Source of the DNA: Escherichia phage JoYop
Strand: one strand, 5' to 3'
DNA length: 64,000 nt
Sequence record: OR769032.1
In this document: positions 51,526-51,981 of the stretch, one piece after another
Numbering within the stretch: position 1 is the stretch's first letter
Layout of the letters: every line of letters starts with the position of its first letter
Notes under the pieces: model-generated
The model's input: only the letters and a program-made list of their open reading frames with translations
What the model was told of the DNA's origin: nothing
Database searches by the model: none
Made by a program: the position numbers and the translations under genes

Positions 51526-51981
51526 TTATTTTAAATCGTCTGCCCAATCAAGTTTAAGAGGCTCTTTGTATTCACGGTCAAGTACAACCGGAATTTGTAC
51601 ATCACCGCTAAATGATAAGGGTCCAACATTATAAGACAATGTTATATGCGGTGTGTAATCATCAAAATCATGTGTAGCACCTAGCGCCCGCGCATACATG
51701 TGTCGACAGCGCAGATATTCAGAATCTAGCACAAGTACAAGAGTCGATCCATCTTGTGTTTTCCATACTTCTAAATGTCCAGAAGAAGCTACTTCAAAAC
51801 TTCCACTCGATGGAACATATGGAACATTTACTCTTGAATAACATATGGTCGAATGAATTTTTTCTCTAGGAACTGGATTAGGAACACGTAAAGAGCGCTG
51901 AAGTTCTTCCAGCGCATCAAGTGTTAATTCTGAAAACTTAGCTGCTACATAAAGACCCGTTGAAAAGTCTTTAAATTCCAT
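51526..51981 (-). CDS. 57B: 2H phosphoesterase, T4 57B / Acb1-type anti-CBASS nuclease
   Basis: 151 aa; two H-x-T/S motifs (HSTICY and HITLSY); between ipI locus and 57A as in T4. Confidence 0.75.

Follow-up and report, generated by a model that had tools for sequence, protein, structure and literature searches.

Gene 57B of Escherichia phage JoYop encodes a protein identical in sequence to T4 Acb1

Does the reading frame at the 57B position of Escherichia phage JoYop (OR769032.1) encode the anti-CBASS enzyme Acb1, or an enzyme acting on RNA, as some database labels have it? A first-pass annotation of a 64,000-nucleotide stretch of this DNA, here called the window, had placed an Acb1-type gene at this position, regarded it as a known system, and suggested that the window may carry both anti-CBASS mechanisms of T4. 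We consider it almost certain that this is acb1 (57B) as carried by a T-even phage (Tequatrovirus) and that its product degrades CBASS signals.

The acb1 reading frame and its identity with T4 gp57B

The gene occupies positions 51526..51981 on the minus strand; its coordinates had been given correctly, with the strand left unstated. Its 151 codons run from an ATG at 51981 to a TAA at 51528-51526. The length of 151 aa and the sequences HSTICY and HITLSY, all claimed previously, are correct according to the reading frame and its translation. The first sequence contains H43-S44-T45 and the second H112-I113-T114, which are the catalytic H-x-T motifs of the 2H phosphoesterase, and the pattern H-x-[TS] occurs nowhere else in the whole 151-aa protein.

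The first-pass annotation had proposed alignment to T4 gp57B as a check. All 151 of 151 residues prove to be identical to T4 gp57B/Acb1 (NP_049750.1; NC_000866), which upholds the proposed Acb1-type identity. Over the 456 nucleotides of the gene, there are nine differences from T4, all of them synonymous and none nonsynonymous, and 12 differences from T2, again without any amino-acid change. That the differences are synonymous only indicates strong purifying selection on acb1.

Residue numbers in the window are those of T4 minus one, because the T4 annotation (152 aa) begins with one additional N-terminal Met, and the published numbers for Acb1 (H44, H113, and so on) follow this longer annotation (PMC9117128). 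At the junction of 57A and 57B, T4 reads ATGATG (GAATGATGG), whereas the window and T2 read ATAATG (GAATAATGG). Thus, the upstream ATG of T4 (positions 14409-14411 of the T4 segment used for comparison) is replaced by ATA in the window (51982-51984) and is missing from T2 as well, so translation of T4 Acb1 may likewise begin at the second ATG.

Published function of Acb1 and its probable transfer to the window protein

The 3'3'-cGAMP-degrading activity of T4-infected cells was traced to 57B by Hobbs et al. (2022, Nature 605:522), who named the product Acb1 and found that it has a 2H phosphoesterase fold (PMC9117128). According to the same study, catalysis is metal-independent, proceeds via a cyclic phosphate intermediate, and is due to the tetrad H44, T46, H113, and T115; the aromatic residues Y12, W74, F107, and W147 provide stacking for the bases of the ligand; E141 reads the adenine N6; and the ligand is covered by a lid comprising residues 145-152 (PMC9117128). 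An H44A/H113A mutant is inactive, and experiments with T4 Acb1 and a T4 delta-acb1 phage demonstrated that the enzyme hydrolyzes cyclic di- and trinucleotides containing adenosine and that it rescues the phage from CBASS (PMC9117128). In addition, 57B is conditionally required on a CBASS-expressing host (HIDEN-SEQ, bioRxiv 10.1101/2025.11.20.689424).

Each of these elements is shared between T4 Acb1 and the window protein. The tetrad corresponds to H43/T45/H112/T114; the stacking residues Y11, W73, F106, and W146 are unchanged; E140, equivalent to the adenine-reading E141, is retained; and the C-terminal lid has the T4 sequence, LDWADDLK. The enzymology and the anti-CBASS phenotype of the window Acb1, which we take from the published work on the identical T4 protein, are therefore expected to be those of T4.

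If so, the window protein would act as a small metal-independent 2H phosphoesterase that binds CBASS cyclic di- and trinucleotides containing at least one adenosine, with 3'3'-cGAMP, cUA, cAAA, and cAAG as candidate ligands. The bases would be stacked on Y11/W73/F106/W146, E140 would read the adenine N6, and the C-terminal lid would then shut. The H43-x-T45/H112-x-T114 tetrad would promote attack by a 2'-OH on the 3'-5' bond, so that the ring would be opened via a 2',3'-cyclic phosphate intermediate to give a linear 3'-phosphate product. Once the signal is gone, the CBASS effector would presumably stay off, and the host would not commit suicide before the phage completes its cycle.

Natural loss-of-function alleles of acb1 and acb2 occur in T-even relatives (PMC12657230; PMC12657218), and some T4-like phages escape Panoptes in this way, the nonsense mutation of Bas43 being one example of an inactive acb1 allele (PMC12657230). 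A decayed or inactive allele of this kind is extremely improbable here: the frame is intact and of full length, and because the amino-acid sequence is unchanged from that of active T4 Acb1, such an allele is already refuted at the level of sequence.

Relatives of the protein and its likely fold

The protein matches the Pfam Acb1 family (PF23474) with E=2.6e-60 and 202.7 bits, compared with a cut-off of 27 bits for this family, and the match spans the complete profile (1-144 of 144). It also matches PHROG 755 (E=5e-68). Such a Pfam score, taken with the identity to T4, is far beyond chance.

Searches with tblastn found the product at 99% identity or above in 498 phage records, among them T6. 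When progressively diverged copies are included, acb1 homologs number 1,470 records in total. We aligned the window protein with Acb1 of Erwinia phage FBB1 and eight homologs, which are 30-80% identical to it; the homologs in this 10-sequence alignment come from phages of Klebsiella, Serratia, Escherichia (Krischvirus), Aeromonas, Acinetobacter, Vibrio, Cronobacter, and Salicola. H43, T45, H112, and T114 are among the invariant columns. Both catalytic histidines, whose loss on careful alignment the first-pass annotation had named as the observation that would speak against it, are thus kept along with both threonines.

A structural comparison is provided by FBB1 Acb1 (PMC9117128), available as an apo structure (PDB 7T26) and in complex with a 3'3'-cGAMP analogue (7T27). 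The window protein matches 7T26/7T27 with E=4e-62 and 68% identity over 141 aligned residues, and this alignment covers 141 of the 144 residues in crystal structure 7T26. The HxT/HxT tetrad and the 2H fold are shared. The differences consist of a single one-residue indel and, among the stacking positions, conservative exchanges: W73 and F106, common to T4 and the window, are F and Y in FBB1. A single-sequence AlphaFold2 prediction for the 151-aa product gave an unusable model (mean pLDDT 37.9, pTM 0.30). Because of this low pLDDT (38), our assignment of the fold rests on the 68% identity to 7T26, and it is by homology to that structure that the product is predicted to adopt the 2H phosphoesterase fold.

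The RNA ligase label

A different function is implied by several annotations. PHROG 755 bears the description 'RNA ligase', RefSeq gives the same name to 57B of both T4 and T2, and the product shows a weak match to the Pfam family 2_5_RNA_ligase2, with which it has the 2H fold in common. By these labels the protein would be an RNA ligase or RNA-repair enzyme, a LigT-like 2'-5' RNA ligase acting on RNA ends. Members of the LigT/2'-5' RNA ligase superfamily do share with Acb1 the two HxT/S motifs, the 2H fold, and metal-independent acid-base catalysis via a 2',3'-cyclic phosphate. However, the match to 2_5_RNA_ligase2 (PF13563; E=0.11) scores only 13 bits, below the cut-off of 27, and involves residues 80-122 only, and the substrates of Acb1 are cyclic oligonucleotide immune signals rather than RNA ends. 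The 'RNA ligase' label is an automatic transfer from the superfamily, and biochemical work on T4 gp57B, whose sequence is identical, contradicts it: direct experiments established that protein as a cyclic-oligonucleotide phosphodiesterase and gave it an anti-CBASS phenotype (PMC9117128). We therefore regard an RNA ligase function as very improbable and reject it. Judged by its sequence, in which nothing speaks against this reading, the gene at 51526-51981 encodes the Acb1 already known from T-even phages, and the earlier view of it as a known system was well founded, the product being the characterized T4 enzyme.

Organization and expression of the 1-57A-57B locus

The gene had also been said to lie where T4 57B does, and its surroundings agree. 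Gene 57A (51981..52223, minus strand), encoding the tail-fiber assembly chaperone (Pfam PF17594 GP57, E=5.2e-51), is directly upstream of acb1 in the same direction of transcription, and its product differs from that of T4 by one amino acid. Gene 1 (52223..52936, minus strand; PHROG 139, E=4.9e-65), encoding dNMP kinase, heads the run. The order 1-57A-57B is common to the window, T4, and T2, so that acb1 follows genes 1 and 57A as it does in T4. Distant acb1 homologs are also preceded by a gene for a 57A-like chaperone, and this placement is conserved across Straboviridae.

Gene 1 itself shows a minor difference. It encodes 237 aa in the window and 241 aa in T4, and a four-codon deletion near residue 105 (...VFVFDDAVNF...) produces a frame offset on direct comparison with T4.

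The stop codon of 57A and the start codon of acb1 overlap by one base in a TAATG junction (51979..51983, minus strand). No strong Shine-Dalgarno sequence is present before the acb1 ATG. The overlap, read directly from the sequence of the junction, suggests that translation of acb1 may be coupled to that of 57A.

Acb1 is presumably transcribed together with genes 1 and 57A, probably at middle to late times, and middle/late expression has been reported for 57B (bioRxiv 10.64898/2026.03.30.715471). The core of the T4 late promoter, TATAAATA, is found at 52586-52579 inside gene 1 and is kept in T4 and T2. Its occurrence in the window as a whole (12 copies, with 10.8 expected) is not above chance. 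Thus, the copy in gene 1 is a candidate promoter only, compatible with middle/late expression of 57B. Scans of the region 51000-53700 found sigma-70 promoter-like and terminator-like sites at about the frequencies seen in shuffled sequence (11 sites versus 10.2, and one site versus 1.6, respectively) and so offer no reliable guide to expression. An Rfam scan detected no RNA element in or adjoining acb1; its matches were limited to nine tRNAs at 48.7-49.5 kb.

Downstream of acb1, a 72-bp spacer (51454-51525, minus strand) separates the gene from ip7. This spacer contains a sigma-70-like match, TTTACA-17-TACTAT with an upstream TG, that overlaps a 7-bp inverted repeat (TGATGAG...CTCATCA). The element may be a promoter for ip7, an RNA hairpin, or both.

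A second anti-CBASS gene, vs.4 (acb2)

In T4, vs.4 is acb2, which encodes a cyclic-oligonucleotide sponge (PMC12657230). T4 Vs.4/Acb2 (PDB 7UQ2) is unrelated to Acb1 in fold and mechanism and sequesters the signal without hydrolyzing it. The window contains an 88-aa vs.4 reading frame at 39491-39757 on the minus strand, whose start is the ATG that gives MIEDIKGY.... The product equals T4 Vs.4 in length and is identical to it at 83 of 88 positions (94%); it matches Pfam PF24729 (Acb2_Tad1_hairpin, E=9.4e-20) and PDB 7UQ2 (Vs.4, E=4e-53). The suggestion that both anti-CBASS mechanisms are present is thereby borne out for two genes, vs.4 and acb1, that are apparently intact; on this evidence, the window encodes both of the mechanisms known from T4.

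The mutations Y8A and T68M are reported to make Acb2 defective in binding (PMC12657230). Y8 and T68 are kept in the window Acb2, as is the T4-type N-terminus. The T2 reference Acb2 differs in that its N-terminal segment is replaced and lacks G7-Y8, which fits a published comment that a mutation in the Acb2 of T2 probably disrupts the binding of dinucleotides (PMC12657218).

The window Acb2 allele is found at 99% identity or above in 59 phage records. It differs from T4 Acb2 by the five substitutions E13D, L44F, N46S, C50D, and F52L, four of which fall within residues 44-52. It is conceivable, if very unlikely, that this allele is retuned in ligand specificity, for example so as not to bind the decoy nucleotides of Panoptes, and that Acb1, kept under strict purifying selection, would then form the invariant arm of a two-part anti-CBASS strategy.

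Biological implications

The product being none other than the T4 enzyme, acb1 in the window adds nothing new on Acb1. Its practical value lies in annotation and in the prediction of phenotype. In many public records this gene is still named 'RNA ligase' or 'hypothetical protein'. Where Acb1 and Acb2 are both intact, the phage is predicted to be resistant to CBASS signaling via adenosine-containing cyclic di- and trinucleotides. Such a phage is also predicted, possibly, to be sensed by Panoptes guard systems, of which type I reacts chiefly to Acb2 and type II reacts when Acb1 degrades cA3 (PMC12657218, PMC12657230, PMC13577387). These predictions are relevant to the choice of therapeutic phages and to the reading of host range.

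Variable regions in the window

The window is from a mosaic Tequatrovirus. Among database records, vB_EcoM_Lutter is the best match, with 97% coverage of positions 40000-64000 and 94.5% identity.

Adjoining acb1 downstream is a gene for an Ip7-type internal head protein (51145-51453, minus strand; PHROG 2667) that is 95% identical to T2 Ip7. In this slot T4 has ipI instead, the gene for the GmrSD inhibitor; T2 has both ip5 and ip7, of which ip5 is absent from the window. Comparison of the three sequences marks the internal-protein slot beside acb1 clearly as a variable cassette.

Farther downstream, at 48735-49493 on the minus strand, is an array of nine tRNAs (Arg, Asn, Tyr, Met, Thr, Ser, Pro, Gly, and Leu). 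These nine are the only tRNAs in the whole window, in which none for Gln or Ile was found. A reading frame for a 210-aa HNH endonuclease (49500-50132, minus strand; PHROG 14736, E=6e-124) occupies the exact site of tRNA-Gln in T4 and T2, and positions 49497-50112 replace bases 12461-12522 of the T4 comparison segment. This arrangement suggests that a homing endonuclease gene inserted here and eliminated a tRNA gene.

Gene order also differs from that of T4 at 41286-43018. A denV-like reading frame (42569-42994, minus strand) lies on the far side of ipII/ipIII relative to its position in T4, and its DNA is approximately 78% identical to that of T4, compared with approximately 92% for its neighbors. 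Near it, an additional reading frame of 86 aa is found at 42302-42562.
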